A DNA stretch of 38,134 nucleotides from a virus, in the IMG/VR virus record IMGVR_UViG_3300047673_000075, positions 1-38,134 of that record. One strand, 5' to 3'. Below are positions 128 through 28,378 of this stretch, piece after piece. Both the position numbers and the translations under genes were made by a program. How positions within the stretch are numbered: the first letter of the stretch is position 1; each line of letters begins with the position of its first letter. The notes under the pieces were generated by a model. It made no database searches. It was not told the origin of the DNA and was given only the letters and a program-made list of their open reading frames with translations.

Positions 128-146
128 TTACGGCGTATCGCAATGA
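1..146 (+). CDS. 3' end of the junction-spanning virion gene that starts at 37224 (bases 1..127 duplicate 38008..38134)
   Basis: The frame entered from 38134 continues ...PENIPDSNYGVSQ and stops at TGA 144..146. That stop overlaps ATG 143 of the next gene (ATGA coupling). Confidence 0.75.
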   Translation, partial: LQDEYDSILSAVMGAEQGAPMLSMAPRLSNILLGPENIPDSNYGVSQ

Positions 147-1942
147 CGAACGTAACCGGCATCGCTGCGGCCGCACAGAGGCGCAGGCGTCAGGCGCAGG
201 GGCAGCGCTCGCAGACGGTCAACATGCCCGCGCCTATCGGCGGATGGAACGCTCGCGACTCGCTCGCAGAGATGGCGCCGCAGGATGCTGTTTCGCTCAC
301 GAATTGGTTCCCGACGACATCCGATGTGATGGTTCGCTCCGGCTTCACGAAGTTCGCGACGGGCCTTCCGGGACAGGTCAACACGGTCATGCCGTACAAC
401 GCTGCATCCGGCTCGAACAAGCTCTTCGCGGCCTCTGGGGCATCTATCTATGACGTAAGCGGCGGGGGCGCTGTGGGCGCTCCTGTATTGACCGGGCTGA
501 CTAGCGACAAATGGGCGTACACGAACTTCGCGACGCTCGCCGGCCCGTTTCTCGGCATCGTGAATGGTCAGGACGGCTATTACGTTTATAACGGTAGCGT
601 CTGGCAGTCGATCGTAAGCGGTACCGGACAGGCCATTACCTCGATCACGAACTCGGGCACGACGGCGACGCTCACGACCGGCGCTCCGCATGGGCTCGTA
701 ACGGGCAACTCGGTCACGATCAGCGGCGCCACGCCGGCAGCCTACAACGGGACCTTCTCGATCACGGTTACGGGCGCATCGACGTTCACCTATGTGATGG
801 CGTCGAATCCCGGAGGCAATGCGACGGTCGTCGGAACCTACACACTCTCGACGAACATCTCAGGCGTCAATCCGAACACGTTCTCCTTCATCATCCTGTT
901 CGCGAGCCGTCTTTGGTTCACGCAGAAGAACAGCCTGAAGGCGTGGTATCTGCCGGTCGGTCAATTCGGGGGAGCTGCGCAGTCTCTGGATCTCAGCCCA
1001 ATCTGTCGCCGCGGCGGCTCGCTCGTCTCGATGGGCGTTCTGACGATGGACGGCGGTTACGGTGTTCAGGATCAACTCTGCTTCGTCACGAGTGAAGGCG
1101 AAGTGGTGATCTACCAGGGTACCGACCCGTCGCAATCGAGCACGTTTGCCCTGGTTGGCGTCTACCAGCTCGGCACGCCGATGGGCTTCCGGTCGTTCAT
1201 GAAGTACGGCGGCGATCTGCTCTACATCGGAAAGGACGGACTCGGGCCGATCTCACAGTTGCTCGCTTCGACACGGGTAAATACGGCCGTCAACATCAGC
1301 GGCAAGATTCAAGGCGCCATATCTCAGGCGACGAGTCTCTACCCGAACAACTACGGCTGGTGCATGGTCCTGTTTCCCATTGAGAACATGATCATTCTGA
1401 ATGTCCCGGTCGGCGCCGATGTTCAGCAGCAGTACGTCATGAACACCATCACCGGTGCGTGGTGCAACTTCACCGGCTGGGGCGCGAATCACTGGGAGCG
1501 CTTCAACGATCAGATTTACTTCGGTGCAAATGGCTATGTGGGCCTCGCCTGGAATGGCGCGAACGATAACGGCTCCAACATCAACGCGATAGCGCAGCAG
1601 GCCTTCAGCGAGTTCGGAACGCCGCTTCAGAAGCGTTTCACGATGATGCGGCCCATTCTTTGGACGAACGGCTCACCGGCGATTGCAGCCGGGATCAATG
1701 TCGACTACGACCAGAATATCCCGCAATCGACGCTTTCATTCCTGCCGATCGGCTATGCGGTGTGGGACACGGGCGTGTGGGACACGGCATTGTGGGGCGG
1801 CTCCCTGCAGATCGCGAAGGCATGGCAGGGCGTGACCGGCCTAGGCATGACCGGCTCTCCGACGCTGAAGGCTGCGGCCAACGGCAATGAAATTCATTGG
1901 GCCGCGTCGGATATCGTCTTCGAGACAGGCTGGACCATCTGA
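143..1942 (+). CDS. Large tail/virion protein, 599 aa (tail tubular B / nozzle-like, putative)
   Basis: Long ORF with high GC3, coupled by ATGA to the upstream virion gene. It sits between the head genes and the internal virion proteins. It has a small inserted beta domain (TATLTTGAPHGLVTGNSVTISGA..YNGTFSITV). The function is assigned by position only. Confidence 0.55.
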   Translation: MTNVTGIAAAAQRRRRQAQGQRSQTVNMPAPIGGWNARDSLAEMAPQDAVSLTNWFPTTSDVMVRSGFTKFATGLPGQVNTVMPYNAASGSNKLFAASGASIYDVSGGGAVGAPVLTGLTSDKWAYTNFATLAGPFLGIVNGQDGYYVYNGSVWQSIVSGTGQAITSITNSGTTATLTTGAPHGLVTGNSVTISGATPAAYNGTFSITVTGASTFTYVMASNPGGNATVVGTYTLSTNISGVNPNTFSFIILFASRLWFTQKNSLKAWYLPVGQFGGAAQSLDLSPICRRGGSLVSMGVLTMDGGYGVQDQLCFVTSEGEVVIYQGTDPSQSSTFALVGVYQLGTPMGFRSFMKYGGDLLYIGKDGLGPISQLLASTRVNTAVNISGKIQGAISQATSLYPNNYGWCMVLFPIENMIILNVPVGADVQQQYVMNTITGAWCNFTGWGANHWERFNDQIYFGANGYVGLAWNGANDNGSNINAIAQQAFSEFGTPLQKRFTMMRPILWTNGSPAIAAGINVDYDQNIPQSTLSFLPIGYAVWDTGVWDTALWGGSLQIAKAWQGVTGLGMTGSPTLKAAANGNEIHWAASDIVFETGWTI

Positions 1943-1943
1943 A

Positions 1944-2399
1944 ATGAAGCGCATCGTGTGGCACGAGTCGGAGCGAGTAATGCGCTTCGTGGCTAAGCAC
2001 GTCGGTGCGGAAACCTTCAAAGACTATGCCGCGATCGGCCTTGAGAAAGACGGCGAGCTGATCGCGGGCGTCCTCTTCGACAACAAGAGCGGCGCAAACA
2101 TTCACATGCACGTCGCCTCGAACGGAACCCGTCACTGGATGACGCCGGCCTATATGGCTGCGTGTTTCCGCTACGCGTTCGTTCAGGAGAAGTGCGCCCG
2201 AATCACTGGCCTAGTGCGGGCCGATAACGCAGACGCACAACGCTTCGACGAACACCTTGGGTTCAGACGCGAGGGACAACTCCGCGCGGCTTGCACCGAT
2301 GGAACGGATCTCATCATCTACGGCATGTTGAAAGACGAATGCCGATACATCTCGGGCAAATACCATGCGGCACTATTGGCTGACCTCGGACTTTCCTGA
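1944..2399 (+). CDS. GNAT-family N-acetyltransferase-like protein (151 aa)
   Basis: ATG lies 2 nt after the upstream stop. The C-terminal pattern ARITGLVRADNADAQRFDEHLGFRREGQLR....DLIIYGMLKDE resembles the RimJ/RimL-type GNAT core. Confidence 0.65.
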   Translation: MKRIVWHESERVMRFVAKHVGAETFKDYAAIGLEKDGELIAGVLFDNKSGANIHMHVASNGTRHWMTPAYMAACFRYAFVQEKCARITGLVRADNADAQRFDEHLGFRREGQLRAACTDGTDLIIYGMLKDECRYISGKYHAALLADLGLS

Positions 2400-3555
2400 C
2401 CTTCCTGCCGGTGCGTTTCGCAAGTCGGTCCTCCGTGATCGTCCCGCAACGCTCGAAGGCGGCAAGGGCGGCTCCGCGCCTGCGGCTCCTGATCCATATC
2501 AGACCGCGCAGGCTCAGACGCAGACGAACACTCAGACGGCGGCCTACAACAAGGCGCTGAACCTTAACAACTACACGAACCCGTTCGCCTCTCAGCAATC
2601 GTCTATCGTCGGCACTGACCCATCGACAGGCGCACCGATCTACAACACGACGGTACAGGCGGGATCGCAGCTTCAGAGCAACATCAACGATTCCCTGCTG
2701 GCCGCAGCCAACAGCAACGGCATCAACAGCAATTCGCTCTCCGGCCTGCAGCAACTCAATAATCAATACTCGGGCCTGAATTCGAGCCTCGGCGGCCTTC
2801 AGGGGCAATACCAAGGGCTGAATTCCGGCATCAGCGGGCTCGGCAACCAATACTCGAATCTTCAGAGCCAACTCGCCGGAATCAATTCGTCGATCGATCC
2901 GCTGGCCGGGAAGAGCGCGCAGACGGCGGGGCAGAACGCCGCATATGCCGCGCAGACTCAGTATCTCGACCCGCAGTTCTCGCAGCAGAAGGAATCGCTC
3001 GACGCGCAACTGGCTAATCAGGGCCTCACGCCCGGTTCGGAGGCATACAACAATGCCATGACGAACTACAACAACCAGAAGCAGCAGGCGTATAGCAACG
3101 CGCAGAATCAGTCGATCCTCACCGGCTCGCAGATCGGCGCGCAAAGCCTTCAGAACCAACTGAACGCGGCAAACGCCAAAGCCGGTCTGGTGGGGCAGCA
3201 AGGCAGCCTCGTCGGGAATCAGGCGGGGCTCTTCGGGCTTCAGAGCCAGAATCTCGGGCAGCAAGCGGGGCTGTACGGTCAGCAGGCGTCGAACCTCGGC
3301 CAGCAGGCAGGGCTTTACGGGCAGCAGGTCGGCATCGGACAAACGCCATATTCGAACCTTGGATCGCTCGCGCAATTGATTCCGGGCTATACCGGTCTGT
3401 CGAGCGCAAGCGCGAACCCTGCCGATATTTCTGGCGCCATCAACAACAATTATCAGGCGCAACTCGCGAACCATAACGCCGATGTGCAGAGCGCGAATTC
3501 GACCACGGGTGCCGTCGCGGGCCTCGCCGGCATGGCCGCTTTGGCGTTCTTCTGA
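2365..3555 (+). CDS. Internal virion / ejection protein, Q/N/G/S-rich with a C-terminal hydrophobic anchor (396 aa)
   Basis: Low-complexity repeats (GLNS.., NLGQQAGLYGQQ x2) and the C-terminus TTGAVAGLAGMAALAFF. It lies upstream of the SLT-containing protein. ATG 2365 is the only ATG and overlaps the GNAT 3' end by 35 nt. Confidence 0.6.
   Translation: MRHYWLTSDFPDLPAGAFRKSVLRDRPATLEGGKGGSAPAAPDPYQTAQAQTQTNTQTAAYNKALNLNNYTNPFASQQSSIVGTDPSTGAPIYNTTVQAGSQLQSNINDSLLAAANSNGINSNSLSGLQQLNNQYSGLNSSLGGLQGQYQGLNSGISGLGNQYSNLQSQLAGINSSIDPLAGKSAQTAGQNAAYAAQTQYLDPQFSQQKESLDAQLANQGLTPGSEAYNNAMTNYNNQKQQAYSNAQNQSILTGSQIGAQSLQNQLNAANAKAGLVGQQGSLVGNQAGLFGLQSQNLGQQAGLYGQQASNLGQQAGLYGQQVGIGQTPYSNLGSLAQLIPGYTGLSSASANPADISGAINNNYQAQLANHNADVQSANSTTGAVAGLAGMAALAFF
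3250..3333 (+). repeat. Imperfect 42-nt tandem duplication (2 copies) encoding NLGQQAGLYGQQ(AS/VG)
   Basis: Copies at 3250..3291 and 3292..3333 align at about three quarters of positions. Most differences are synonymous. Confidence 0.7.
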
Positions 3556-4145
3556 TGAAGCGAGATCAACTCATGCAGGCGCTGCACGACGTGCGCGCCA
3601 CGTACCCGGCGATCGATCTTTCGAAACGTGATGTCTTCCTGCGAAACCTGATCTTCATTCACAACGTCATCGCGGCGAGCGAAAGCCTTCTGCGCGCGGC
3701 GTGCGATCGGTCGATCAGCGAGCTCAAGGCGTATTTCGCTGATCACCTGAAGGAAGAGGCGGGGCACGAATTTTGGCTCCGGCATGACCTCGCGACCGCT
3801 GACATCAACGTCGCGTCTCTGCCGGTTTTGCCCGAAGCTGTCGCAATGGCGGGCTCGCAGTATTACCTGATCCATCACGTCGACCCGGTCGCGCTGCTCG
3901 GCTACATGGCGGTGCTGGAGTGCTTCCCGATCGATATCGAGACGCTTGAAAAGCTCGAAGAGCTTCACGGCAAGCAGCTTTGCAGGACGCTGCGTTATCA
4001 CGCTGAGCATGACATTTCGCATGGCTCTGACGTGCTCGACGAGATCGACCTTCTCGACGAAAAACAGTTTCAGTTGGTGATACAGAACGCGGTTCAGACC
4101 GCTCTCTATATCGGTTCTGCAATCTCTAAATTCGGGGTTCAATAA
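3555..4145 (+). CDS. Haem-oxygenase-like di-iron oxidase/oxygenase (HDO, iron-containing redox enzyme)-like protein, 196 aa
   Basis: All-helical-looking sequence with HLKEEAGHEFW (E68-x-x-H71), LECF (E122) and RYHAEHDISHG (E151, D153-x-x-H156). Its start overlaps the upstream stop and its stop overlaps the downstream ATG. The CDS call is firm; the family call is tentative. Confidence 0.5.
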   Translation: MKRDQLMQALHDVRATYPAIDLSKRDVFLRNLIFIHNVIAASESLLRAACDRSISELKAYFADHLKEEAGHEFWLRHDLATADINVASLPVLPEAVAMAGSQYYLIHHVDPVALLGYMAVLECFPIDIETLEKLEELHGKQLCRTLRYHAEHDISHGSDVLDEIDLLDEKQFQLVIQNAVQTALYIGSAISKFGVQ

Positions 4146-6100
4146 TGGCCGGCTCGACTCCATTTGTGCTGCCGCAGTATCAAGGCAGCATGTACGATTT
4201 GCAGCGCCAACAGGCGCTCGCAAACGCTCTCATGCAAGGGGCCTTGACTCAGCCGCAGGCCCCGCAGCCGGGCGCTTCCGGGCAATATCAGGTCGCGGCG
4301 CGCACGTCGCCGCTCGCACCGGTAAGCAATCTCGCGCAGGGCTTGCTCGCGAACAAGATCGGGCAGCAGGCCGGCCAAGGCTTGAACCAACTCGGTCAGA
4401 ACCAGTGGCAATCGCTGATCGGCGCACTTGGGGGAGGGGCCGCCGCGCAGTCCCCACAGCTCAACCCCGGCTCTGCCGATGGCGGGGTCGGGGTCGCAGG
4501 GAGCGTCGTTAACCCCTTCAATGGGGCTGATGGGAGCAATGGGACTCCAGGCGCCGCAGCAGCCGGACCCGTCAATGGCGTCTCTGCTGGGCCTCAACTG
4601 GCAAACAACGTAGGCGGCAACGCGCCGCTGAACCCGCTCGGCATGAATCCGCAGTTGGCTGCGATGATGCTGATGCAGTCGCCTGACAAGTATTTCGAGA
4701 GTCAGGCGGCGGCATACAAGCAAGCCGAAATCGTTCCGCAGCTTCGTGCGGCCGGCATCGATCCGAACAGCGATCAGGGGCATGCGCTCGCGAAAGCGCT
4801 CATCGAGAAGAACAACTACATCGCGCCGATCACCGGGACGGGCACATTTCGAGACCCGCGCACGATGCAGCCGGTCGCGTTCAATCCGGACGTTCCGGCT
4901 GGCTCGACGCCCCTTTTCGATGCGACAGGAAATGTCGCTGCGGTGCGGCCGATTCAGGGGGCGCAGGCTGCGATGCAGGGCAATGCGGCGGCTACGGCAG
5001 CCGGTGGCGCTCAATTCAAGCCGGTGCAGGTGTACAACCCGCAGACGCAGCAGATGGAGTTCACCAACGAGGCGCAGGTGACGAATCCGGTTCATGCGGC
5101 GATCGTGCAGACCGAGAGCAACGGAAATCCGAACGCCGTCTCGCCGAAGGGCGCTCAGGGCGCGTGGCAGATTATGCCGAATACGAAATCCGACCCCGGT
5201 TTCGGCGTGCGTCCTGCTGCGAACAATTCGCCGGCCGAGCTCGATCGTGTGGGGCGCGATTACTACGATGCCATGGCGCAGCGCTATGGCAGCCCTGCGC
5301 TCGGCGCAATCGCCTATAACATGGGACCCGGCGCGACCGATACGTGGCTCAAGAACGGCGCTCAGTTCGAGAAGCTTCCGGCGGAGACTCGCAACTACGT
5401 CGGCAAGGTGGTTACGCTGACGGCACTTAATAGTGGGGCAGGAAACCAAGGAGCCGCGCCGACTCAGCAGCAGCCTGCTCGGTTCGCGGCAGGCGCTCCG
5501 ATGGGAGCGCAAGCCAGCGCGGAGTCGCTTGCGAAGGGTCAGGTAGATACGATGCAGAAGTCGTATCAGAACCTGCAAACGGTGCGCTCCGGAGCTCCGG
5601 CTGCGCTTCAGGACGTGGACAACATGTCGAAACTCGCGGCCGGCGCATCGCCGCTCACGCTGGGCGCATCCGGTGCGAAGTTCGCCGGTCTTTTCAGCCC
5701 GAACGCGGCGGAATACGAAAAATCGCGAGACAACCTCGTGACGAACCTCGGCTCGCAACTCGGCATTAACTCCGACGCTGCGCGCGATCTTGTGTATGGC
5801 TCGATTCCGTCCTACGGCGCTCCGAAACAGGCTGTGCAGAACGGGCTCGAAACCTTACGCGGCCAGATTCAGACGCGTCTTCTCAAGTCCGACTACCTGT
5901 CGGATGCATACGGTTCCGGCGATGCTAAGACGTACAACCAGAAGGAAAACACGTTCGATCAGCACATGTCGCCCGCCACGGCAAACCAAATCGCAAGAAT
6001 CAACGCGATGCCGGCCGGTCAGCAAAAGGCTGATGCGCTTCGAGCCTTGAAGGGTAATGCTAACTTTGAATGGGCCGCCTCGAACGGGATTCTGAAATGA
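4145..6100 (+). CDS. Internal virion protein with soluble lytic transglycosylase (SLT) domain, 651 aa
   Basis: The motif AIVQTESNGNPNAVSPKGAQGAWQIMPNT matches the SLT catalytic E-S...GLMQ-type signature. The size and context are typical of podovirus ejection proteins. Confidence 0.8.
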   Translation: MAGSTPFVLPQYQGSMYDLQRQQALANALMQGALTQPQAPQPGASGQYQVAARTSPLAPVSNLAQGLLANKIGQQAGQGLNQLGQNQWQSLIGALGGGAAAQSPQLNPGSADGGVGVAGSVVNPFNGADGSNGTPGAAAAGPVNGVSAGPQLANNVGGNAPLNPLGMNPQLAAMMLMQSPDKYFESQAAAYKQAEIVPQLRAAGIDPNSDQGHALAKALIEKNNYIAPITGTGTFRDPRTMQPVAFNPDVPAGSTPLFDATGNVAAVRPIQGAQAAMQGNAAATAAGGAQFKPVQVYNPQTQQMEFTNEAQVTNPVHAAIVQTESNGNPNAVSPKGAQGAWQIMPNTKSDPGFGVRPAANNSPAELDRVGRDYYDAMAQRYGSPALGAIAYNMGPGATDTWLKNGAQFEKLPAETRNYVGKVVTLTALNSGAGNQGAAPTQQQPARFAAGAPMGAQASAESLAKGQVDTMQKSYQNLQTVRSGAPAALQDVDNMSKLAAGASPLTLGASGAKFAGLFSPNAAEYEKSRDNLVTNLGSQLGINSDAARDLVYGSIPSYGAPKQAVQNGLETLRGQIQTRLLKSDYLSDAYGSGDAKTYNQKENTFDQHMSPATANQIARINAMPAGQQKADALRALKGNANFEWAASNGILK

Positions 6101-7833
6101 GCTCTCTCGACGATCTGATCGCACAGAATTCCGCGCAGCAGGCCCCGAGCGCGATCGACTCCCTGATCTCCAAGAACGCGGGAGTTCAGGGAGTGCCGCA
6201 ACAGCAGCCTGCCGCGCAGCCCCAGACACAGCAATCCACGCAACAGGGCGCGCAGCCGGCCAATTGGCAGGTTCCGAATTCCGTCGTCATGGGGATGGGC
6301 GATTCAGTTCGCGGCTACGGGCAGTCGATTGTGCATGGCCTGTCGTGGCTCGCTGACAAGGTCGCGCCAGAATCTCAGTTCGCGAAGGATGCGCGCGCGG
6401 CGCTGCCTCAGATCCAGCAGACCATCGATCAGCAGAACGCGCAGTATGCCGCGGCGAATCCGAACGCGGGAACCGATTGGGGGCGTATTGGCGGGCAGGT
6501 AGGAGGGATGGCGCTTATCGGTGGGGGCGGTGCTGCTGCGCCTGAAAGTCTCGCTGGTAAGGCGGTTATGGGCGCGCTCTCCGGCCTCGGCGGAACGGCT
6601 GCGCAACCCGTCGCGAACCTGCAACCGGGCCAAACCTATGCCGATGCGAAGCTCGATCAGGCGAAGACGAACGCGCTCATCGGCGCGTTCGCAGGACCGG
6701 CAACAGGAATCGTGGGGAGTGCCATTTCTGGCGTAGGTGGCGCCGCTCAACGTCGCCTCGCTGATGCGGGCGTGACTATGACGCCGGGGCAGATTCTCGG
6801 ACCCGCTGCCGCGCGTACAGAGGAAAAGCTCACCAGCGTTCCTATCATCGGGGATTTCATCAAGAACGCTCAGAATCGCTCAGTTCAGAGCTTCAACCGA
6901 GCGGCATACGACAACGCTCTGGAGCCGGTCGGGCAAGCTCTACCGCGCAATACCGCGATCGGCTCTGATGCCGTCGCCGCAGTGCGGGACCGCATCGGAC
7001 AGGTCTATAACTCCATCGAGCCGCGCGCTTCGTTTGTCGCAGATCAGAACTTCAATGCCGATGTGAACGCGATCCGGAACAACCTCGCGCAGAACGCGCC
7101 GGGAACGCTTCAGCAATTCGACAATATCGTTGCCAATCAGGTTACGAACAAGCTGCAACACGGCTACGTGCTCGACGGGCATCAATGGGGCGCGACGCGT
7201 TCCGAGATTTCGACGATGGCGCGCAATCAGACGCTCGGCAATGCGACGCCTGACAATCGCGCGCTCGCCGGTGCGCTAGGCGATCTGAACGACGCGATCA
7301 ATTCTGGCGTCGCTAGGTCAAGTCCCCCGGATGTGTTGCAGGATCTCGGGCGCGCCAACGCCGCGTGGGCTCGATACAAGCAGATCGAGAATGCAGCGGG
7401 ATCGGCTGGCGCGTCGAATAACGGAAATGTCTTCACGGCCGCGCAGTTTCAGAACGCGATCCGGCGCGGCTCGACGAGCGGCCAGAAGGCGACGAACTCC
7501 GGGCTCAACGGGCAATTTGGTGCCGATGCTCAGGACATTCTCGGCGGTGCATATCCGAACAGCGGAACGCCCGGACGAGCGGCTTTGATGGCGGCGCTCG
7601 GTGCGCTCGGTGGGCATGCTGTGCTGCCTCCGAATGTTGCGGCACCTGCAATCGGAGCTGGCGCGGCGGCGGCTCTCCCGTACACAGCATTGGGCCAGCG
7701 TGCGACGCAGGCATTACTTATGTCGCGTCCTGCTGGGTTTGCTCCAGTAGGGGATGCGCTTTCGCGCTACGGGGTCCCATTCTCCGCTGCGCTTGGCGCT
7801 GCGCTCGTCCCATCTGTCAGCGGCGGCCAATAG
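6097..7833 (+). CDS. Internal virion / ejection protein, 578 aa, Gly/Ala-rich with hydrophobic segments
   Basis: ATGA overlap with the SLT gene at 6097..6100. Glycine-zipper-like stretches (GGMALIGGGGAAAP, GALGALGGHAVLPP). It is the last gene before a terminator. Confidence 0.6.
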   Translation: MSSLDDLIAQNSAQQAPSAIDSLISKNAGVQGVPQQQPAAQPQTQQSTQQGAQPANWQVPNSVVMGMGDSVRGYGQSIVHGLSWLADKVAPESQFAKDARAALPQIQQTIDQQNAQYAAANPNAGTDWGRIGGQVGGMALIGGGGAAAPESLAGKAVMGALSGLGGTAAQPVANLQPGQTYADAKLDQAKTNALIGAFAGPATGIVGSAISGVGGAAQRRLADAGVTMTPGQILGPAAARTEEKLTSVPIIGDFIKNAQNRSVQSFNRAAYDNALEPVGQALPRNTAIGSDAVAAVRDRIGQVYNSIEPRASFVADQNFNADVNAIRNNLAQNAPGTLQQFDNIVANQVTNKLQHGYVLDGHQWGATRSEISTMARNQTLGNATPDNRALAGALGDLNDAINSGVARSSPPDVLQDLGRANAAWARYKQIENAAGSAGASNNGNVFTAAQFQNAIRRGSTSGQKATNSGLNGQFGADAQDILGGAYPNSGTPGRAALMAALGALGGHAVLPPNVAAPAIGAGAAAALPYTALGQRATQALLMSRPAGFAPVGDALSRYGVPFSAALGAALVPSVSGGQ

Positions 7834-7930
7834 CCATGCGTATCCCGCACGAATCGCCGGCAAAAGAACGACCAGAAGGACGGTCGCGAGCGTGTTGCGG
7901 ATAGTTTGATCATCCATCTCATTCCCCTTC

Positions 7931-7956
7931 GGGCCGCCAAGTGCGGCCCTTTTGTT
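7931..7956 (+). terminator. Intrinsic terminator
   Basis: GGGCCGC-caagt-GCGGCCC followed by TTTTGTT. Confidence 0.7.
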
Positions 7957-7988
7957 GATACTGCCATTTAACGTACCGGAGAATCAAA

Positions 7989-9443
7989 GTGAGCTTCAAC
8001 GGATCAGGCGTTTTTCAATTAGTTGCTGGAAATCCTGTGGTCACGGGGACCGTTATCAGTTCCACGTGGGCCAACAATACATTAAGCGACATCGCGAATA
8101 ACGGCCTGACGAACTGCATCACGAAGGACGGGCAGCAGACGCTTACCGCGAACATTCCCTTTGGCGGCTTCCGCGCGACCGGCCTCGGCGATGCGGTGAA
8201 TCTTCAGGACGCGACCACGGCGAAGCAGATCCAGAACGGTGGGCTGGTCACGCTTGCATCCGTCGCTGGCACCGACACGATCACGGCATCAACCGCGCCA
8301 GCGATTGGCTCTTACGTGAGCGGCCAGACGTTTCGCTTCGTCTCGGCCGGCGCGAACACGACGAACGCAGTCACGCTGAACATCGGCGCTCTTGGTGCGA
8401 AAGCCCTGATGAAGATCGGCCCGAGCGGCCTCGTGCAGCTTTCCCCAGGCGATCTGAAGACGGGGCAAGTCGTTGAAGTCTTCTACGACGGCACGCAATT
8501 CCAGATGGCTGTGCCCGTCGCACCGAACGTCCCCATCCCGTACACAAATGATCTTCTGAACGGCAATTTCGACGTCTGGCAGTCGCAGACGAGTAACGGG
8601 AATGCAACCAACGGGACCACCGCCTATCTGGCTGACGGCTGGCAGATTTACCGCAATTCTTTTTCGAACAACTACACGGCGTCGCAGCAGACGGGGCCTA
8701 CGGGCTCATCCTTTTGCCTTCGAGTGCAGCGCACGGCCGGCGATACGCAGGTCAGCGGCATCATCGTTTCGCAGTCGTTCGAGACGGTCGACATCAAAAA
8801 ATGGCAAGGGCAGCAACGCTGCTGGTCCGGTCAGCTTCTCGCGAATGGCGCGTTCATCGGAGCGACTTTCACGGCTCAGGTGCTGTTCGGTACCGGCACG
8901 GACGGAAACCCTGCTGCCGGCTTTACCGGACCATTTGGCGCGCTATCCGCCTCGTTCACCGGTACCGGCGCGTATCAGCAGATCTCGCTTCCGTTCGTCG
9001 TCCCGGCCAATGCAACGCAGATGGCCGTGCAAGTTCAGATCGTGCCGTCTTCGACCGCGGCCGGCGCCTCCGATTACTTCCAAGTCGCGCAGATGATGCT
9101 GAACGCCGGCGCGTCGCCGCTTCCTTTTGCATCGCGCCCGTATGGCGTGGAGCTCGCCGAGTGCCAGCGGTATTGGGAAACCGGCAACGAGCCATATTCG
9201 TTCATGAATAACTTGGCTGGCAATACCGCCGCATACGGAGAAGTTCGCCTTTCCGTGAACAAACGCGTCTCGCCGACGATCACGTTTTCAGGATGGCAAT
9301 ACTTTTCCGGCGGGGCGAACACGGTTTTCACGCCGACCATTTCAGCTTCGTTGGTCGATTCGTTCCGCTTCCAGGCAACGGGCCTCACCAACTGGCAAGG
9401 CTGGGCAGGCGCCGGTCTGTGGAACGCAAACGCACGTCTCTGA
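7989..9443 (+). CDS. Tail fibre protein (484 aa), GTG start
   Basis: GGAGA lies 7 nt upstream of GTG 7989. The N-terminus MSFNGSGVFQLV..TVISSTWANNTLSDIANNGLTNCITKDGQQ is the common phage tail-fibre N-terminal pattern. Confidence 0.7.
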   Translation: MSFNGSGVFQLVAGNPVVTGTVISSTWANNTLSDIANNGLTNCITKDGQQTLTANIPFGGFRATGLGDAVNLQDATTAKQIQNGGLVTLASVAGTDTITASTAPAIGSYVSGQTFRFVSAGANTTNAVTLNIGALGAKALMKIGPSGLVQLSPGDLKTGQVVEVFYDGTQFQMAVPVAPNVPIPYTNDLLNGNFDVWQSQTSNGNATNGTTAYLADGWQIYRNSFSNNYTASQQTGPTGSSFCLRVQRTAGDTQVSGIIVSQSFETVDIKKWQGQQRCWSGQLLANGAFIGATFTAQVLFGTGTDGNPAAGFTGPFGALSASFTGTGAYQQISLPFVVPANATQMAVQVQIVPSSTAAGASDYFQVAQMMLNAGASPLPFASRPYGVELAECQRYWETGNEPYSFMNNLAGNTAAYGEVRLSVNKRVSPTITFSGWQYFSGGANTVFTPTISASLVDSFRFQATGLTNWQGWAGAGLWNANARL

Positions 9444-9454
9444 GGGCATAGCAC

Positions 9455-9589
9455 ATGTACAAGATCATCAACGAAGACGTCGTTCTGCGCCTGTCTGACG
9501 GCGCTTTTATCCCGACAACCGATCCTTTGAACCAGGACTATCGCGACTATCTGAAGTGGCTCGAAGCGGGTAACACGCCGGAATCCTGA
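9455..9589 (+). CDS. Small tail-fibre-associated protein (44 aa), absent from the ORF track
   Basis: MYKIINEDVVLRLSDGAFIPTTDPLNQDYRDYLKWLEAGNTPES. I recall this motif type occurring immediately downstream of tail-fibre genes. Confidence 0.5.
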   Translation: MYKIINEDVVLRLSDGAFIPTTDPLNQDYRDYLKWLEAGNTPES

Positions 9590-9647
9590 GGCCTCGACGC
9601 ATCGGGTGATCAACACAATAAATCCGAAACACACGGGGAACTACTGA

Positions 9648-10031
9648 ATGGGTGCAGAACGTATGCGGTACTCAGAAAATCCCCCGCATACCGAAGGCGA
9701 AGGATTGAGAGCAGTCGCGGATGCTCTAGACCGGCTCCGCGACGAGATAGGCCAAAGGCATGTCGAAAATACGAGTTCATTGGAAGTCATCGAGAAGGAC
9801 ATCAAAGTGCTTACCGATCGGGTTGACGATCTCACGAAGGGTTTTCCCAACGGAGATCCAGATGGGCATCGGCTTTATCACGAAGCCACCATCAAGAAGA
9901 TAGAGGCGCGCGCGAGGTTCTATGAGGATCTGCGTGGCGAGCTGGCGAAGAAGGGGATCTGGTCGATGATCATCCTCATCGGCGCCGCGCTCTGGTTCTA
10001 TACGAAAGCGAAACTCAGTGAGGGGAGGTGA
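9648..10031 (+). CDS. Tail-anchored coiled-coil membrane protein (127 aa), lysis-cassette associated
   Basis: Single C-terminal TM segment (IWSMIILIGAALWFY). Its stop overlaps the endolysin start region. GC looks lower than in its neighbours. Confidence 0.5.
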   Translation: MGAERMRYSENPPHTEGEGLRAVADALDRLRDEIGQRHVENTSSLEVIEKDIKVLTDRVDDLTKGFPNGDPDGHRLYHEATIKKIEARARFYEDLRGELAKKGIWSMIILIGAALWFYTKAKLSEGR

Positions 10032-10033
10032 AT

Positions 10034-10513
10034 ATGAGTTCTTTCGATGATGCGTTCACCGCGCTCATGGGGAACGAGGGGTCTTACGTGAACAACCCTG
10101 CCGATCCCGGTGGAGCAACCCGATGGGGCATTACTGAACGCGTTGCGCGCGCAAATGGGTATGTGGGGGAGATGCGCGCGCTCCCTCTTGAAACGGCTCG
10201 CGATATTTTCAAGCGGCTGTATTGGGACCCATTGCACCTCGACGAGTTTGACTCGCGCATCGCGTTCCAGATGGCCGATAGCAATTTCAACGGCGGTCAA
10301 ACCGTGCGATGGGCTCAGGCTGCTGCCGGCGCTGCGGTTGATGGAAAGATGGGACCGATGACGATCGCGGCGATCCGTATGGCTGACCCGCACAGCTTCA
10401 TCATGGCGTTCCTGTCGCAGCGCCTCACCTATCTGACGAACCTCGCTACGTGGTCCACGTTCGGGAAGGGATGGACCCGGCGAATCGCCAACAACCTGCA
10501 GCGGGGTGTCTGA
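10034..10513 (+). CDS. Endolysin, GH108 N-terminal domain plus PG-binding-3-like C-terminal domain
   Basis: FDDAFTALMGNEGSYVNNPADPGGATRWGIT is the GH108 signature. The RBS GGGGAGG precedes ATG 10034; GTG 10028 is an alternative start. Confidence 0.85.
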   Translation: MSSFDDAFTALMGNEGSYVNNPADPGGATRWGITERVARANGYVGEMRALPLETARDIFKRLYWDPLHLDEFDSRIAFQMADSNFNGGQTVRWAQAAAGAAVDGKMGPMTIAAIRMADPHSFIMAFLSQRLTYLTNLATWSTFGKGWTRRIANNLQRGV

Positions 10514-10514
10514 T

Positions 10515-11171
10515 ATGGATTGGTCCGATCTGAAAGGGATCGTCGGGAAGGCTGCGCCGGTGGTCGGGACTCTTCTTGGCGGTCCGGCCGGCGCCGCTGT
10601 GGGCGGTCTCATTGCTGCTGCGCTCGGCACCGACAGCACGCCGGATGCCGTCTCCGCTGCGCTCATCGGGAATCCAGACGCCATCGTGAAGGTTCAGGAG
10701 CTGCAGACCAACGCGAAGATTCAGCTTCAGCAACTCGCAGTCACCGCCGAAGCCAACCGACTCGCGGACGTGCAGAGCGCTCGGGCTCGGCAGTCGGCGA
10801 ATCCGAACGACAAGACGCCTCAGTTTCTTGCGTGGGGCGTCACGATCGGATTCTTCGGCACGCTGCTGCTGGTCGCATTTGCCCGCATGGAGCCCGCGAC
10901 ACAGAATCTACTGCTCGTGATGACTGGGACGCTCTCGACCGCATGGGTGGCGATCATCTCGTATTATTTCGGGTCGTCGAAGGACAGCACGAATCAGACG
11001 AAGATGATCGCGGACGTCGGGTATGCCGCCGCCAACGCCCCGATCAATATTCAGGCTCCGACCGCGCAATCTCATGCCATGCCGGTGCCGATTGCGCAGC
11101 CTATCGCCCCGCAGCCAGTCGACGGCAACACGCCGGTTCCGGGCCTACAGGGCGACATCTACAAGGGCTAG
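10515..11171 (+). CDS. Holin, GTA-type 3-TM holin family-like
   Basis: MDWSDLKGIVGKAAPVVGTLLGGPAGAAVGGLIAAALG...AVSAALIGNPDAIVKVQELQ matches my memory of the GTA_holin_3TM pattern, and further TM segments follow. ATG lies 2 nt after the endolysin stop. Confidence 0.65.
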   Translation: MDWSDLKGIVGKAAPVVGTLLGGPAGAAVGGLIAAALGTDSTPDAVSAALIGNPDAIVKVQELQTNAKIQLQQLAVTAEANRLADVQSARARQSANPNDKTPQFLAWGVTIGFFGTLLLVAFARMEPATQNLLLVMTGTLSTAWVAIISYYFGSSKDSTNQTKMIADVGYAAANAPINIQAPTAQSHAMPVPIAQPIAPQPVDGNTPVPGLQGDIYKG

Positions 11172-11836
11172 AACCGGTAATTCAAGGTCACGGTGTGCGC
11201 GCCCCCGGCCAGTCCCGGGACGCCGTTCGACCAATCCTGCTTCACGTCGTAATAGCGGTATGAGAGGCTGAGCGGGCCGCGCTCCACGCGCGCGCCCACC
11301 ACATACCCGACATGCATCGTGCGGGACGTCTGGAGGTTGTAATCGCCCCACGACGTCTGGGCGTACTGGTTCCACGACTGGCGATACACCCAGGCACCTC
11401 CCTCCAGCGCGAACCGATACCCGCTGTAGGTGTATCCGACGTCCAGCGTCGCCGCAACGCCGTTCAGATGCCCGTGGCCCGCATAATATCCGAGCGCAGG
11501 ATCTGCGACCTTCATGCGGTGCTTCTGCGTGTCGTAGTCCTCGTCGTGCTCCGCACAATTGCACGAGGACGAATATTCCCCGATGTACACGTAATCGACG
11601 TGATACCGGACGTTCCAGTTCGCGCGCGCCCACACTTCGCCGGTGAAGCCGAGATTGACGGCGGCCGTCGTCAGGTGCTGTTTGTTATTCGGAGCGCCGT
11701 ACTGTGTCCACGTACCGTCGCCGATATCTTTGACGTGTCCGACGCCCAATCCGGCCTCGATCTGGAAAAATGATTCGGCGTGCGCGGATGCGCAGGCGAG
11801 TGCAAAAGTGATTGCAGCCAAGGTATAGGCGCGCAT
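11168..11836 (-). CDS. Outer-membrane beta-barrel protein (Ail/Lom/OmpX-like moron), 222 aa
   Basis: Signal peptide MRAYTLAAITFALACASAHA, alternating aromatic beta-strand pattern and C-terminal ...VTLNYRF. It is convergent with the holin gene and next to the attP-like gap. Confidence 0.75.
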   Translation of the reverse strand: MRAYTLAAITFALACASAHAESFFQIEAGLGVGHVKDIGDGTWTQYGAPNNKQHLTTAAVNLGFTGEVWARANWNVRYHVDYVYIGEYSSSCNCAEHDEDYDTQKHRMKVADPALGYYAGHGHLNGVAATLDVGYTYSGYRFALEGGAWVYRQSWNQYAQTSWGDYNLQTSRTMHVGYVVGARVERGPLSLSYRYYDVKQDWSNGVPGLAGGAHTVTLNYRF

Positions 11837-12038
11837 GATTCCCTCGTGATTAAAACAAGGTGCTAAGTGATTGATTTGGTTGAGACGAGAATCGACATTT
11901 CGCGACGTTTTTAACGGGCGAAAAGATGACTGAAGTATTTGATTTAAAACGGAAAACCGCTGATATTAGGTATCAGCATGTCCGAGTAAACGACGATCTC
12001 CTCGCGTCCTTATCTGGCAAGGCTTTGAGGCGAGGCGT
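11837..12038. promoter_or_regulatory. AT-rich non-coding gap beside int: candidate attP plus OMP promoter region
   Basis: This is the most AT-rich stretch of the window. It contains the 7-bp inverted repeat GCTGATA-ttagg-TATCAGC (11959..11977) and repeated TTAAAAC words. The core site is not identifiable without the host sequence. Confidence 0.4.
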
Positions 12039-13157
12039 TCAACCGGTGTGGTTAATTCGTTCAGAATTATTTGTGGCGATCGTCACCTTTATCGGCGCGA
12101 TTCCGCGGCTGTCGGAGTACATTTCAGCCATCGCATCGGTCATGTGACCGAGCAACGCCTTGGTGTCGATGCCACCTTGAGCGTCATAGAGCCGCTTCGA
12201 CAAACTGCGAATCTCGTGAAAAGTCGGCGCATAATCGTCGTTCGTAATGCCAGCGAGCGTGCGCGCATTTGCGAATGATTGACTGATACTTCCTAGCTTC
12301 ACATGAGTTCCAGTCTTCGCACGGCCCTGATTCCTGATGTGGTGAATCAGATACTTGCTCACGACTCCGGTCGATTTGCACTTTGCGATGACATCGCCGA
12401 GAGACATGCCTATCGCGTCGAGACGCAGCGCCATCGGAATTTCTATCTTGATAGACGTTTTCGAGCGCTGAAGAAGCACGACATCTCCAGACGAGAACGA
12501 GCGCTGCCAGCGGCCGATTGTCGATCGGTCCTGTCCTGATACGAGCGCCAACAGCATCGCGTTCTGGAGCCAGTCATTGACCTCCGGTGCCTTGTCGTAG
12601 ATCGTCTGGAACTCTTCGAGCGTCAGTCGGCGGCGCTTCGTCTTCGGAACCGGGCGCGACGTTTCCTTGGCCGGGTTCATCGTCGTGATCAGCCCGAGTT
12701 CCATCCCGCGCCGGCAGATTGTCACGAGGCGATTTCGGATCGATTGCGCCCAGCGCTTCTTTCCTTCCTTCACGATCGGCTCGATGAAGTCGGCGATATG
12801 CTTCGTCGTCAGCTTGTCGCACTCGATTGTGCCGAGCGCTTTCACGATGGCGCCGTCGACATAGCTGCGCGTCTTGAGCGTGGATGCCTTGACGCCTTCG
12901 GTCGGCATGCGGTCGATCAGATCAGCGATCGTCTTCTGCTGTTCCGTCAGTCGCTCGGCAAGTGTGCGTGTAACCTTAGCATTCGCCACGATCACATTCG
13001 CTTCCTGAGCCTGATAGATGGCCTCGGCAAGCGAGATTCGACCGAGTACATGCGTCTTTCCGTCACGCGGATCGCGCCAGACATAATAGCCGGGTCTCGG
13101 CTCGTGCAGATGCTCAGGCCAGTTTGCGCGTTTGCGGATGCGTGGTCGTGCAGCCAT
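12039..13157 (-). CDS. int: Tyrosine integrase, lambda-Int type (372 aa)
   Basis: The N-terminal arm-binding pattern PGYYVWRDPRDGKTHVLGRISLAEAIYQAQEAN resembles lambda Int. The C-terminal part carries FHEIRSL (HxxR) and LLGHMTDAMAEMYSD (H..Y). ATG at 13157 is chosen over the longer track ORF. Confidence 0.9.
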   Translation of the reverse strand: MAARPRIRKRANWPEHLHEPRPGYYVWRDPRDGKTHVLGRISLAEAIYQAQEANVIVANAKVTRTLAERLTEQQKTIADLIDRMPTEGVKASTLKTRSYVDGAIVKALGTIECDKLTTKHIADFIEPIVKEGKKRWAQSIRNRLVTICRRGMELGLITTMNPAKETSRPVPKTKRRRLTLEEFQTIYDKAPEVNDWLQNAMLLALVSGQDRSTIGRWQRSFSSGDVVLLQRSKTSIKIEIPMALRLDAIGMSLGDVIAKCKSTGVVSKYLIHHIRNQGRAKTGTHVKLGSISQSFANARTLAGITNDDYAPTFHEIRSLSKRLYDAQGGIDTKALLGHMTDAMAEMYSDSRGIAPIKVTIATNNSERINHTG

Positions 13158-13159
13158 GA

Positions 13160-13357
13160 TTACCTCGGGATGCGGGAAGCCAGCGACGGTCGCGTCTGGC
13201 GGTCCTGAAAGGTTGCATTCTCGTCGACATAATAAGCGCGGCCGACCTTCTGCGGTGGAGGGTATATGCGGCCGTCGCGAATCCAGCCGCGAGCTGTGGC
13301 GATTGCTGGAGGCGGATCGAACTGGCGCTCCAGCCATTTTTCGAGTCTGAGTTTCAC
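13160..13357 (-). CDS. xis: Excisionase, lambda Xis-like (65 aa), GTG start
   Basis: VKLRLEKWLERQFDPPPAIATARGWIRDGRIYPPPQKVGRAYYVDENA parallels lambda Xis LTLQEWNARQ..VRRWVRECRIFPPPVKDGREYLFHESA. GGGAGGAAAC precedes the GTG. Confidence 0.75.
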   Translation of the reverse strand: MKLRLEKWLERQFDPPPAIATARGWIRDGRIYPPPQKVGRAYYVDENATFQDRQTRPSLASRIPR

Positions 13358-16721: not shown

Positions 16722-17729
16722 TTACGCGCCGAGCAGCAACTCGCGGCGGTCTTCGAATGCCTGCGTGAGCTTCGCCAGTTCATTCGCCGGCAGATCGCGC
16801 GCGCTGTCCATCACCATCGCGAGCGTGTCGACGTCGTTCGCCTTCTGGATCTGGCCGAGCAGCGTGCTGTAGTCGACCGTCATGTCCTGCTGCTGCGCGC
16901 GCTGGTCGGTGATCTCGCCGGTGGAGCGGTCGATCTCTTCGCCATATCGCTGCTCGTCGTCGACCTCGGTGAAATTCCCATCGATGACCGCGTTGTTGTC
17001 TTGCGGCAGTCCCATCTCCGCGCGCTCGTCGATTCCGACAGCGGTCTGCATCTCGATCGATACCGGTAGGAACTTGAACAGGCGACGAACGACCGTCTTC
17101 AGTGCCATCGCTTGATAGTCAGTCTTCCACGGTCCATTGTTGCCGGCCTTGCTTCGCGAGCGGATGCCCTCGACCTCGGCGCGGCTCATCACGTCGAACT
17201 GAATGCCGCCGTCCTTCAGCTTTGCCACGGCGTAGACGAACTGGAGCTTTTCGCCCTTCGTGCGGTTCGGATTCGACCAGTCCGGCTCGTGCTCGATGTG
17301 AGGATCAAGACCGAGTCGACACTCGAAGCGATCGCCCTCGTAGACAGCGCGTGCATCGATGCTGACGATCTGACCGGAGCGGCGCGCCAAGTCGATCATG
17401 CCTCGATAGCCGATGATCAACTGGACGTCGCGGCCGTAGGGCAGGAGGTACGCATGTCCGAGCGCGTTGCCCGGTTCCAGCCCGAGCTGCGCGCACTGGA
17501 TGACCGCGCCGAAGAACGAAACCGGCGTGCATTCGGCCAGCTTCGGCACCTTGCGGATCTCGGTCGTCACGATGCGCGCAAGGCGCTCAGGCGTCATATG
17601 GCGCGGCAGAGCGGCTTTGATCTGCGCCTGCATGCTCGGGCTGGCGAGCAGCGCTGCGACCTTGTCGACGGGCGTCTTCGCGACGTTGCCGGATTTGATG
17701 TTGCTGATGCTGGTCTGAGTCACGTTCAT
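16722..17729 (-). CDS. recT: RecT-family single-strand annealing protein (335 aa)
   Basis: SFFGAVIQCAQLGLEPGNALGHAYLLPYG....IIGYRGMIDLARRSG is the RecT core. ATG 17729 overlaps the exonuclease stop (ATGA). Confidence 0.9.
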   Translation of the reverse strand: MNVTQTSISNIKSGNVAKTPVDKVAALLASPSMQAQIKAALPRHMTPERLARIVTTEIRKVPKLAECTPVSFFGAVIQCAQLGLEPGNALGHAYLLPYGRDVQLIIGYRGMIDLARRSGQIVSIDARAVYEGDRFECRLGLDPHIEHEPDWSNPNRTKGEKLQFVYAVAKLKDGGIQFDVMSRAEVEGIRSRSKAGNNGPWKTDYQAMALKTVVRRLFKFLPVSIEMQTAVGIDERAEMGLPQDNNAVIDGNFTEVDDEQRYGEEIDRSTGEITDQRAQQQDMTVDYSTLLGQIQKANDVDTLAMVMDSARDLPANELAKLTQAFEDRRELLLGA

Positions 17730-18559
17730 TCCTCGTTGTGTAGCGCCCATTCCGGGAGCCTGATCAAAGTGATGCCGTCCGAGTAACCGGGCCAGCGTTC
17801 GGTCTTCATGCATTCCGCGTAGGTGCGCAGATTGCGTTTGTAGTGCTGGCGGCCGGCTTCGAGGCTGTCTGGATCGAGCATCGTCGCGGAGGCCGCATAG
17901 GGGTACTCGGTGGAAACTGCGACGAAGATGAACGCCAGCACACGCCGTCCGCTCGCCTTCTCGTATCCGTCCGAGTACATGGCAGCCTGTTTTGCGTAGG
18001 CCTTGCGCGCGCACTGCCGGGCGAACTCGCGCGGGCTCGCGTCGGTGTAGGTTTTAACGTCGAGCAGGATGGCCGCGTCATCGCCTACAGGATGTGTCCA
18101 GTCCGGACGGCAGCGGCACTCGACGCCCGTCTCTTCATCGACCCAGAAGGCCGATAGTTCCGGCCATCCTTCGGCCAGCGCTTCGCGGATCTCGCCGAGC
18201 CGATTCACCGATGCCGCCTGCCGAATCGCGACCTCGTACTGGTCGTGCTGGATCGCAGTGCGGCCGGCGTGCGTCTCGACGAACTCCTTCCACGCCTTGG
18301 TGTTGCGGTTCAGCGTCGGCCCGACGACGTAGCGCTTCTCGAACTCTTCGGGCTCTAGGATCGCGCAGTGCGCCATATTCCCTTCGAGTTGCCCCTGCTT
18401 TTCCTTCGGCGCCGGCCGCAGCGGATCGCGGTGCCGCGCGTAGAAGATCGCAGGCGAAAGGTCGATCGAGTCGAGGCCCGACTTACTGACCGGCTCCATC
18501 GCGTGGTAAGCCTCGATGTCGAGGCCATGCACGATGCCGGGGATGAATTCGCGCTTCAT
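17726..18559 (-). CDS. PD-(D/E)XK exonuclease (RecE/exonuclease VIII-like, DUF3799-type), 277 aa
   Basis: YHAMEPVSKSGLDSIDLSPAIF...GNMAHCAILEPEEFEKRY and LLDVKT motifs. Paired with recT. Confidence 0.85.
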   Translation of the reverse strand: MKREFIPGIVHGLDIEAYHAMEPVSKSGLDSIDLSPAIFYARHRDPLRPAPKEKQGQLEGNMAHCAILEPEEFEKRYVVGPTLNRNTKAWKEFVETHAGRTAIQHDQYEVAIRQAASVNRLGEIREALAEGWPELSAFWVDEETGVECRCRPDWTHPVGDDAAILLDVKTYTDASPREFARQCARKAYAKQAAMYSDGYEKASGRRVLAFIFVAVSTEYPYAASATMLDPDSLEAGRQHYKRNLRTYAECMKTERWPGYSDGITLIRLPEWALHNEE

Positions 18560-27976: not shown

Positions 27977-28378
27977 ATGACCGCGACGACTTTCGACCAG
28001 AAGCTTTTCGACCGCATCTGCGAGCGAATGGCCGAAGGGGAGAGCCTGCGCGCCATCTGCAAGACGAAGGACTATCCCGCCAAGCGCACTGTGCTTCGGT
28101 GGGTCGCGAAGGATGAGAAGCTCGCCGCGCAGTATGCCGAAGCGCAGAACATGCGCGCCGAGCATTACTTCGACGAGATCATCGACATCGCGGACAAGGG
28201 CGCGGACCCGGCGAAGACTCGCGTTCAGGTCGACGCGCGCAAATGGGTTCTCGCCCGCATGAACCCGAAGAAGTACGGCGACAAGTTCACGCAGGAACTC
28301 ACCGGTGAGGGTGGCGGCGCACTCCAGGTGCAGATCGTTCGGTTTGGGGCTCCAGATGCCGACGATTCAGCTTCCTAA
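27977..28378 (+). CDS. terS: Terminase small subunit (133 aa)
   Basis: FDQKLFDRICERMAEGESLRAICKTKDYPAKRTVLRWV...AQYAEAQNMRAEHYFDEIIDIAD...VDARKWVLARMNPKKYGDK is the common HTH-type TerS pattern. Confidence 0.7.
   Translation: MTATTFDQKLFDRICERMAEGESLRAICKTKDYPAKRTVLRWVAKDEKLAAQYAEAQNMRAEHYFDEIIDIADKGADPAKTRVQVDARKWVLARMNPKKYGDKFTQELTGEGGGALQVQIVRFGAPDADDSAS

Follow-up and report, generated by a model that had tools for sequence, protein, structure and literature searches.

Haem-oxygenase-like dimetal oxidases/oxygenases (HDOs) are defined by six metal ligands, a glutamate and a histidine on core helix 1, a glutamate on core helix 2 and an H-x3-D/E-x2-H motif on core helix 3, held in a seven-helix scheme that includes the three core helices (PMC13133933). 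A seventh carboxylate on auxiliary helix 2 is found in subgroup 1, where O2 activation is substrate-independent, and is lacking in subgroup 2, where it is substrate-triggered (PMC13133933). In T7, P22, epsilon15 and phiRIO-1-like phages, an internal virion protein (IVP) operon ordered A-B-C-D lies directly after the gene encoding tubular tail B (TTB), the nozzle protein (Hardies et al., PMC4819975). IVP-A has matches to acetyltransferases and is a morphogenesis protein, which in T7 is non-structural and not retained in the virion; the gene at this position is non-structural in the phiRIO-1 group too (PMC4819975). Here we describe IMG/VR virus record IMGVR_UViG_3300047673_000075 (positions 1 to 38,134, the whole stretch of DNA analysed and hereafter the window), in which a gene for a 196-aa protein lies between IVP-B and IVP-C. 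Sequence comparison and structure prediction indicate that this protein is a genuine member of the HDO superfamily with an intact predicted 3-His/3-carboxylate metal site. An HDO-type signature embedded in the ejection-protein operon had been the core claim of an earlier note made from the sequence alone, and profile matches, predicted fold, invariant ligands and synteny all support it. The coordinates of all features are given in Table 1.

A profile hidden Markov model (HMM) search matched residues 29-173 of the protein to PF14518 (Haem_oxygenas_2, 'iron-containing redox enzyme') at 33.8 bits (E=3.7e-8), above the curated Pfam cut-off of 28.9 bits. The AlphaFold2 (AF2) model was all-helical, with a predicted local distance difference test (pLDDT) score of 96.3 and a predicted template modelling (pTM) score of 0.91. 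Its helices (residues 2-14, 25-52, 55-80 [kinked], 93-108, 111-122, (128-138), 144-165 and 169-193) follow the order aux1-aux2-core1-aux3-core2-core3-aux4 of the HDO scheme. When this model was compared with the PDB using Foldseek, all matches were proteins of the haem-oxygenase fold, among them CADD (template modelling [TM] score 0.79-0.81), UndA, HrmI, TenA, HmuO and PqqC, and TM scores were 0.7-0.82 over 3dde, CADD, UndA, TenA and HmuO. The predicted fold is therefore a haem-oxygenase-like bundle, nearest to 3dde, CADD and UndA. The best match in structure (TM 0.82) and in sequence (family profile E=0.014) was Sden_3740 (PDB 3dde), a structural-genomics entry described as a 'DUF with haem-oxygenase-like fold'. 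However, the function of Sden_3740, a 239-aa cellular protein, is not known, and hence it gives no help on chemistry.

The three motifs that had first drawn attention to the protein are present at the named residues (H64-L-K-E67-E68-A-G-H71, L121-E122-C-F and A150-E-H152-D153-I-S-H156). Five residues, E68, H71, E122, D153 and H156, had been put forward as ligands; all five are in the predicted set, but H149 was missing from the list (H149-x3-D153-x2-H156). With its addition the canonical 3-His/3-carboxylate set is complete, comprising E68 and H71 on core helix 1, E122 on core helix 2 and H149, D153 and H156 on core helix 3. An alignment of 37 sequences (40-86% identity) revealed H64, E67, E68, H71, W74, D78, E122, E135, H149, D153 and H156 to be invariant. 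All six ligands are kept in 46/46 phage-context homologues and are also found in 77 cellular homologues, apart from gaps at H149 and D153 in a single cellular sequence. Moreover, the family profile aligns the ligand motifs with the 3dde motifs H..EE..H, E and H-x3-D-x2-H, and this alignment, the predicted helix positions and the i/i+4/i+7 spacing are indirect support for a predicted convergence of the ligands on one dinuclear site. The conservation extends to a putative second shell (H64, E67, W74, D78, Q102, Y103, Y104 and H108), which is kept in the phage and cellular clades at 30-45% identity. Since PF14518 is matched above its cut-off and the motif residues are invariant across the family, the likeness of these motifs to those of HDO enzymes is not a matter of chance.

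Some features of the site are peculiar to the phage clade. E43, on auxiliary helix 2, is kept in 35 of the 46 phage-clade members and lies 25 residues before E68, the equivalent distance being 26 residues in SznF and RohS (PMC13133933); it may be a seventh ligand. It is one of four polar residues (E43, E135, R147 and H152) that are kept in 35-45 of the 46. The cellular counterparts of E43, E135 and H152 are V, A and L, whereas position 147 is R in 33/77 and L in 34/77. H152 falls on the ligand face of core helix 3. The metal site or the substrate pocket of the phage HDOs may thus be modified.

Two other activities associated with this fold were considered, and the sequence argues against both. 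TenA (thiaminase II) has the same fold with no metal and relies on a conserved catalytic cysteine. The only cysteine near the site here, C123, varies between C, G, A and F, while the dimetal ligands are invariant. Canonical haem oxygenases (HO-1, HmuO) have a conserved proximal histidine on the N-terminal helix. No invariant histidine precedes H64 in the phage family, the N-terminal helix is poorly conserved, and haem oxygenases were weaker Foldseek hits. By contrast, the seven-helix bundle, three core helices and six ligands are predicted to be shared with CADD/CT610, UndA, SznF, RohS, HrmI and AetD, and the E-x-x-H spacing on core helix 1 resembles that of UndA. The phage protein nevertheless differs from the known HDO enzymes in being shorter (about 195 aa versus 215-260), in carrying its own signature (H-x2-E-E-x2-H-x2-W-L-x2-D and G-x-Q-Y-Y) and in being encoded in a phage morphogenesis operon, not a biosynthetic cluster. 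Its identity to solved structures is 9-17%.

The gene is tightly embedded among its neighbours. Its ATG and the TGA of the upstream gene overlap by one base (TGATG at 3553-3557), as do its TAA and the ATG of the downstream gene (TAATG at 4143-4147), so that the ORF overlaps the genes on both sides, as the earlier note had stated; the neighbours, too, are as described there, with a Q/N-rich protein upstream and an SLT domain protein downstream (Table 1). Consensus matching found no promoter-like site between 143 and 7833. Terminator-like matches within the operon, at 5670-5688 on the + strand and at a few - strand sites, were weak and did not exceed their frequency in shuffled sequence. The stop/start overlaps, the lack of an internal promoter or convincing terminator, the recurrent position in homologues and the existence of HDO-less relatives in which IVP-B runs straight to IVP-C all argue that HDO belongs to the operon, and we read its gene as cotranscribed with, and translationally coupled to, IVP-B and IVP-C. 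Cotranslation with internal proteins is not, by itself, evidence that HDO is packaged.

A search of 5.8 billion proteins returned 152 relatives of HDO, mostly of about 195 aa and most with a precomputed PF14518 match. Several are encoded by genomes of Caballeronia, Burkholderia, Ralstonia and Herminiimonas and already bear the NCBI name 'iron-containing redox enzyme family protein'. An exhaustive profile search yielded 1,312 clusters (50% identity) at E<=1e-3 and 174 at E<=1e-30. Loci were gathered from IMG/VR (41), from a few prophages and from contigs retrieved by exact protein look-up. Using iterative HMMs, a nozzle homologue was found beside HDO in 46/50 phage-context loci, 44 of which also contain the GNAT and 43 the IVP-B family; the exceptions to the IVP context include one locus of ambiguous context (L040) and one that is too short (L048). 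The gaps between HDO and its neighbours are mostly -1 or -4 nt, and homologues as distant as about 36-45% identity still have this position. The layout is repeated in L027, a more divergent podophage, around a different structural-protein family. The loci span 44-66% GC and thus diverse hosts. In bits per residue against the window protein HDO exceeds the major capsid protein, nozzle, GNAT or IVPs, a comparison biased by the loci having been found through HDO.

Among annotated phages, the nozzle is closest to those of MW202489.1 and Sulfitobacter phage phiGT1, both of which encode TTB, an acetyltransferase/'head assembly protein', a structural protein of ~300 aa and two injection proteins, with no HDO. 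Because such relatives pass from IVP-B directly to IVP-C, HDO is an extra gene of a subclade. On this comparative evidence we regard it as a lineage-specific addition to the IVP operon of a temperate podophage clade, mostly of Burkholderiales.

Not every long homologue is what it appears to be. Apparent IVP-B/HDO 'fusions' of 437-491 aa in six loci (L031, L033, L036-38, L041) were rejected as artefacts of long ORFs that run out of frame in high-GC DNA; the genes actually present there encode a separate Q/N-rich protein of ~300 aa and an HDO of ~189 aa. Two further proteins (P0047, P0146) are long through N-terminal extensions that resemble mis-called starts. A metagenomic representative of 344 aa (P0159) is an HDO homologue with a Cys/His-rich C-terminal extension of ~110 residues, which has no PHROG match and is possibly a zinc-binding module.

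Genuine fusions were found between HDO and IVP-A. In P0149 (328 aa), HDO occupies residues 1-190 and is followed, after a linker of a few residues, by a phrog_4470 GNAT domain at residues 201-327 (E=1.8e-33) that is 27% identical to the IVP-A of the window. This protein is identical on four contigs from four samples, where the gene order runs adaptor, nozzle, HDO::GNAT, IVP-B and on to the SLT-IVP and fibre, and a separate IVP-A is lacking. Three more full-length fusions, at 87, 67 and 54% identity, bring the total to four distinct proteins of 327-330 aa, and all metal-ligand residues are intact in the fusions. In three other loci the genes are separate and ordered nozzle (TTB), HDO, GNAT (IVP-A); in a rough neighbour-joining tree these loci and the fusion clade were not sisters. 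Foldseek searches of BFVD with the fusion model matched the GNAT half only, to RimL-like phage proteins, one 'Internal virion protein A' and DUF2824. IVP-A of the T7 gp13/P22 gp14 type resembles HDO in being small, globular and encoded in the IVP operon, and the two are fused or adjacent in several lineages; however, their folds are unrelated, and IVP-A is near-universal in these podophages whereas HDO is restricted to a subclade.

The nearest cellular relatives were also inspected for hints of chemistry. The cellular sister clade comprises the 77 relatives from genome scans (within the range L049-L125), which are 32-42% identical to the phage protein and have the same ligands and second shell, and no phage genes were found near them. 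They occur in two strongly conserved cassettes, both of which are, to our knowledge, uncharacterised. In 41 loci, mostly from Acidobacteriota, HDO is followed by a Ser/Thr-kinase-TPR protein. In ~30 loci from Actinomycetota (Streptomyces, Lentzea and others) the order is radical SAM, HDO, adenylate/guanylate-cyclase-AAA_16 and subtilase, often with DUF6895 upstream. PADLOC matches to the neighbouring kinase and cyclase were at domain level only. These are signalling-type cassettes from which no substrate could be inferred, and they may be signalling or conflict systems.

We tentatively favour the view, to which we assign a probability of roughly 0.45, that HDO is an O2-dependent enzyme working with IVP-A in morphogenesis and not a packaged effector. 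HDO would activate O2 and act late in infection together with the GNAT-fold assembly factor IVP-A. It would probably modify its target oxidatively, with hydroxylation, N-oxygenation and C-C cleavage as candidate reactions and with the internal/ejection proteins or a ligand that they need as the likeliest targets, before or during incorporation of the IVPs into the procapsid, and would probably not itself be a channel-forming ejection protein. An assembly-phase enzyme is preferred to a packaged effector because in some relatives HDO is fused to IVP-A and IVP-A is reported to be non-structural. The same fusion lends support to part of an option raised in the earlier note, that of a modifier of cell-envelope or virion components, the part that gains being the virion components. 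Several points count against such a role. IVP-A and the IVPs work without HDO in most podophages, and HDO must therefore be accessory. We know of no demonstration that IVP-A itself is catalytically active, and the HDOs known to us act on small molecules (or, in CADD, on its own side chains) and not on other proteins. Metal binding, activity and absence from the virion are themselves predictions. In ~39 loci HDO follows IVP-B and is not beside IVP-A, and in one 40-kb viral contig (L017) it is outside the IVP block altogether (8001-8591), overlapping TerL (8588-10069), with the portal at 10017-12314; since this copy adjoins the large terminase gene, the link between HDO and the IVPs is not absolute. 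Lastly, the AF2 model of the fusion shows two good domains but a pTM of only 0.64, with no confident interdomain interface; it speaks neither for a fixed interface nor against one. Directly upstream of TerL, the HDO of L017 is roughly at the place expected for a small terminase.

The least doubtful of the alternatives, though still an unlikely one, is the option that the earlier note listed first, in which HDO is packaged in the capsid core with IVP-B, C and D and delivered to the periplasm or cytoplasm, where it would oxidise a host compound such as a lipid or fatty acid of the envelope, a metabolite or a signalling molecule, analogous to the SLT of IVP-C. The majority arrangement, in which HDO sits between two ejection-protein genes with overlapping stop/start codons, speaks for this, and UndA, a fatty-acid decarboxylase, is among its structural matches. 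Enzymatic activity within IVPs also has precedent in the SLT encoded by the next gene and in T7 gp16 (PMC8954989). As with those SLT domains, a catalytic function is predicted to be encoded in the ejection-protein operon; however, the SLT domain belongs to a large ejected protein and has an evident substrate in peptidoglycan, whereas HDO is a stand-alone predicted O2/metal enzyme with no obvious envelope substrate. Packaging also fits poorly with the fusion or adjacency of HDO to IVP-A, a protein that does not stay in T7 virions, with the terminase-proximal copy in L017, and with the lack of homology to any PHROG virion protein. In composition HDO is globular and enzyme-like, as is the GNAT (Q+N 6.6%, A+G 14.8% for HDO), unlike the low-complexity IVPs (Q+N 15-25%, A+G 25-31%). 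Furthermore, a compact metallo-bundle would presumably have to unfold and lose its metals in order to pass through the tail channel.

An auxiliary enzyme (the product of a moron or auxiliary metabolic gene [AMG]) that is expressed late, has nothing to do with the virion and is simply carried along in the late operon seems to us improbable. Examples would be a CADD-like enzyme of p-aminobenzoate (pABA)/folate metabolism, a cofactor-related enzyme or one that makes or breaks down a small molecule bearing on host defence or lysogeny. In its favour, HDO is mobile within late operons, occupying three positions in the IVP block as well as the terminase-proximal one; its closest cellular relatives are in signalling-type and not structural contexts, and the PHROG of the neighbouring GNAT is classed 'moron/AMG'. 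Yet ~46/50 of the phage-context copies are within the IVP block and tightly coupled, none of the loci examined had a copy in an early or lysogeny region, and fusion to IVP-A kept down to 54% identity is unexpected for a passenger gene. Far less credible still is a catalytically dead helical bundle co-opted to build or scaffold the capsid core. HDO is all-helical, small and sited among core proteins, and its 196 aa equal the length of T7 gp14 (PMC8954989). However, the six ligands and second shell are kept across phage and cellular clades at 30-45% identity, which argues for selection on the active site and not on the fold alone; the suggestion in the earlier note of a degenerate scaffold that has lost its metal is accordingly disfavoured by the invariant ligands.

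Returning to an assembly-phase enzyme acting with IVP-A, a further proposal, which we hold to be speculative and on balance unlikely, is that the two proteins are a pair of enzymes by which podovirus ejection proteins are matured post-translationally. HDO would oxidise an IVP side chain or terminus (e.g. by N- or C-hydroxylation) and IVP-A would acylate it. In its extreme form, drawn by analogy with siderophore N-hydroxylase and GNAT pairs, the product might be a hydroxamate-like metal-binding group.

We found no phage precedent for HDO in the databases and literature searched, in agreement with the earlier note, to which no role described for such an enzyme in a podovirus ejectosome was known. 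No homologue was detected by tblastn in 50,697 GenBank phage records, so that no cultured phage represented there carries the gene; no PHROG family matched at E<=0.01, and neither NCBIfam nor PADLOC gave a family for HDO. Foldseek searches of BFVD, with either the HDO or the fusion model, gave no viral HDO-like fold at E<=1e-3. No sequence, profile or structural match to known IVP-B, C or D families was found (PHROG, tblastn, BFVD), and no publication in the searched library linked HDO, PF14518 or 'iron-containing redox enzyme' to phage virion modules. The enzyme family is already known, with RefSeq automatically naming bacterial copies; what is new is its setting in the phage IVP operon, sometimes as a fusion.

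The block that surrounds HDO is, by its family matches and gene order, a T7-type IVP operon comprising TTB, IVP-A, IVP-B, HDO, IVP-C(SLT) and IVP-D (Table 1). By tblastn, the nozzle protein matched proteins annotated as tubular tail B, phage stabilization or structural in podophages of Sulfitobacter, of Rhizobium and of the Brucella Tb-like and Mx8/Mx9 types. The label 'amidase', given to this protein by phrog_5107 and in several RefSeq records, looks like a propagated legacy misannotation. The IVP-A ORF as called by program starts at 1887 (170 aa), but its likely start is the ATG at 1944, one base past the TTB stop, and the phrog_4470 alignment begins there, at residue 20 of the longer ORF. 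A match of IVP-A to Pfam Acetyltransf_8 (E=1.7e-5) was under its cut-off. Syntenic proteins named 'acetyltransferase' or 'head assembly protein' are at the place of IVP-A in two related loci (L003 and L004). The IVP-B family is at the matching position in at least 43 related loci, and IVP-C has PHROG matches to 'internal virion protein with endolysin domain' and lytic tail proteins. IVP-D had no family match in Pfam or PHROG; its program-called ORF starts at 6070, and the ATG at 6097 is a possible start that overlaps the IVP-C stop as ATGA. Further small ORFs are found beside HDO or IVP-B in related IVP operons, namely L036 8559-8924 (121 aa), L126 9838-10119 (93 aa) and L027 8642-9103 (153 aa), of which those of L036 and L027 had no family match. 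The IVP module thus seems tolerant of small accessory genes.

The window as a whole is the ~38-kb genome of a temperate podophage (1-38134). The genome looks complete and circularly permuted, with its break near the adaptor/nozzle junction. Comparison with GenBank phages revealed no close relative, the only match being ~500 bp at about 75% identity to the exonuclease region of Burkholderia thailandensis phages.

Table 1. Positions of the HDO gene, its operon and other features of the window, with example loci for the two cellular cassettes.
Feature	Sequence	Position	Strand	Details
Tubular tail B (TTB)/nozzle protein	Window	143-1942	+	599 aa; phrog_5107 E=4.6e-122; marks start of IVP operon
IVP-A, GNAT-fold 'head/IVP assembly' protein	Window	1944-2399	+	T7 gp13/P22 gp14 position; phrog_4470 E=3.9e-47
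IVP-B-position protein, Q/N-rich virion structural/ejection protein	Window	2365-3555	+	396 aa; phrog_6121 'virion structural protein' E=2.3e-41; Q+N 24.7%
HDO gene (haem-oxygenase-like dimetal oxidase/oxygenase, PF14518)	Window	3555-4145	+	196 aa
IVP-C-position internal/ejection protein	Window	4145-6100	+	651 aa; lytic transglycosylase domain at residues 310-409, PF01464 SLT E=1.1e-15
IVP-D-position internal/ejection protein	Window	6097-7833	+	587 aa (program-called ORF); position and size as second large injection protein of L003, L004 and other loci
Strongest terminator-like hairpin of the region	Window	7931-7949	+	7 G-C pairs then T-run; after IVP-D; consensus match
Promoter-like site	Window	7955-7984		Ahead of tail-fibre gene; consensus match
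Integrase	Window	12039-13337	-	
RecT	Window	16722-18014	-	
TerL	Window	28305-29819	+	
Portal	Window	31260-33467	+	
Major capsid protein (MCP)	Window	34973-35977	+	
Cellular cassette with Ser/Thr-kinase-TPR (example)	L051	7872-8564 / 8565-10931		HDO / Ser/Thr-kinase-TPR
Cellular cassette with radical SAM and cyclase (example)	L067	6730-7905 / 7518-8564 / 8197-11997 / 11994-12827		Radical SAM / HDO / adenylate/guanylate-cyclase-AAA_16 / subtilase

HDOs are a fast-growing family of O2-activating enzymes that have so far come from natural-product and cofactor pathways, and none is known to have been tied to virus morphogenesis; the phage setting gives a new HDO subfamily a biological context. IVP-A (T7 gp13, P22 gp14) is needed for infectious particles and has an acetyltransferase-like fold to which no reaction is known to have been assigned. 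That an oxygenase with intact predicted ligands has repeatedly been joined to it suggests a chemical maturation step of the ejection proteins that has not yet been described. If the two-enzyme proposal were true, it would give a catalytic role to the long-enigmatic IVP-A and bring covalent chemistry into the ejection machinery. Experiments are feasible because cultured strains of Burkholderia, Caballeronia, Ralstonia and Herminiimonas harbour prophages with the gene, among them Herminiimonas contaminans Marseille-Q4544, Caballeronia udeis GAS109, Burkholderia ambifaria and Ralstonia insidiosa. The testable alternatives are an O2/metal-dependent covalent modification of ejection proteins or an oxygenase delivered with the genome, and either would be new phage biology.

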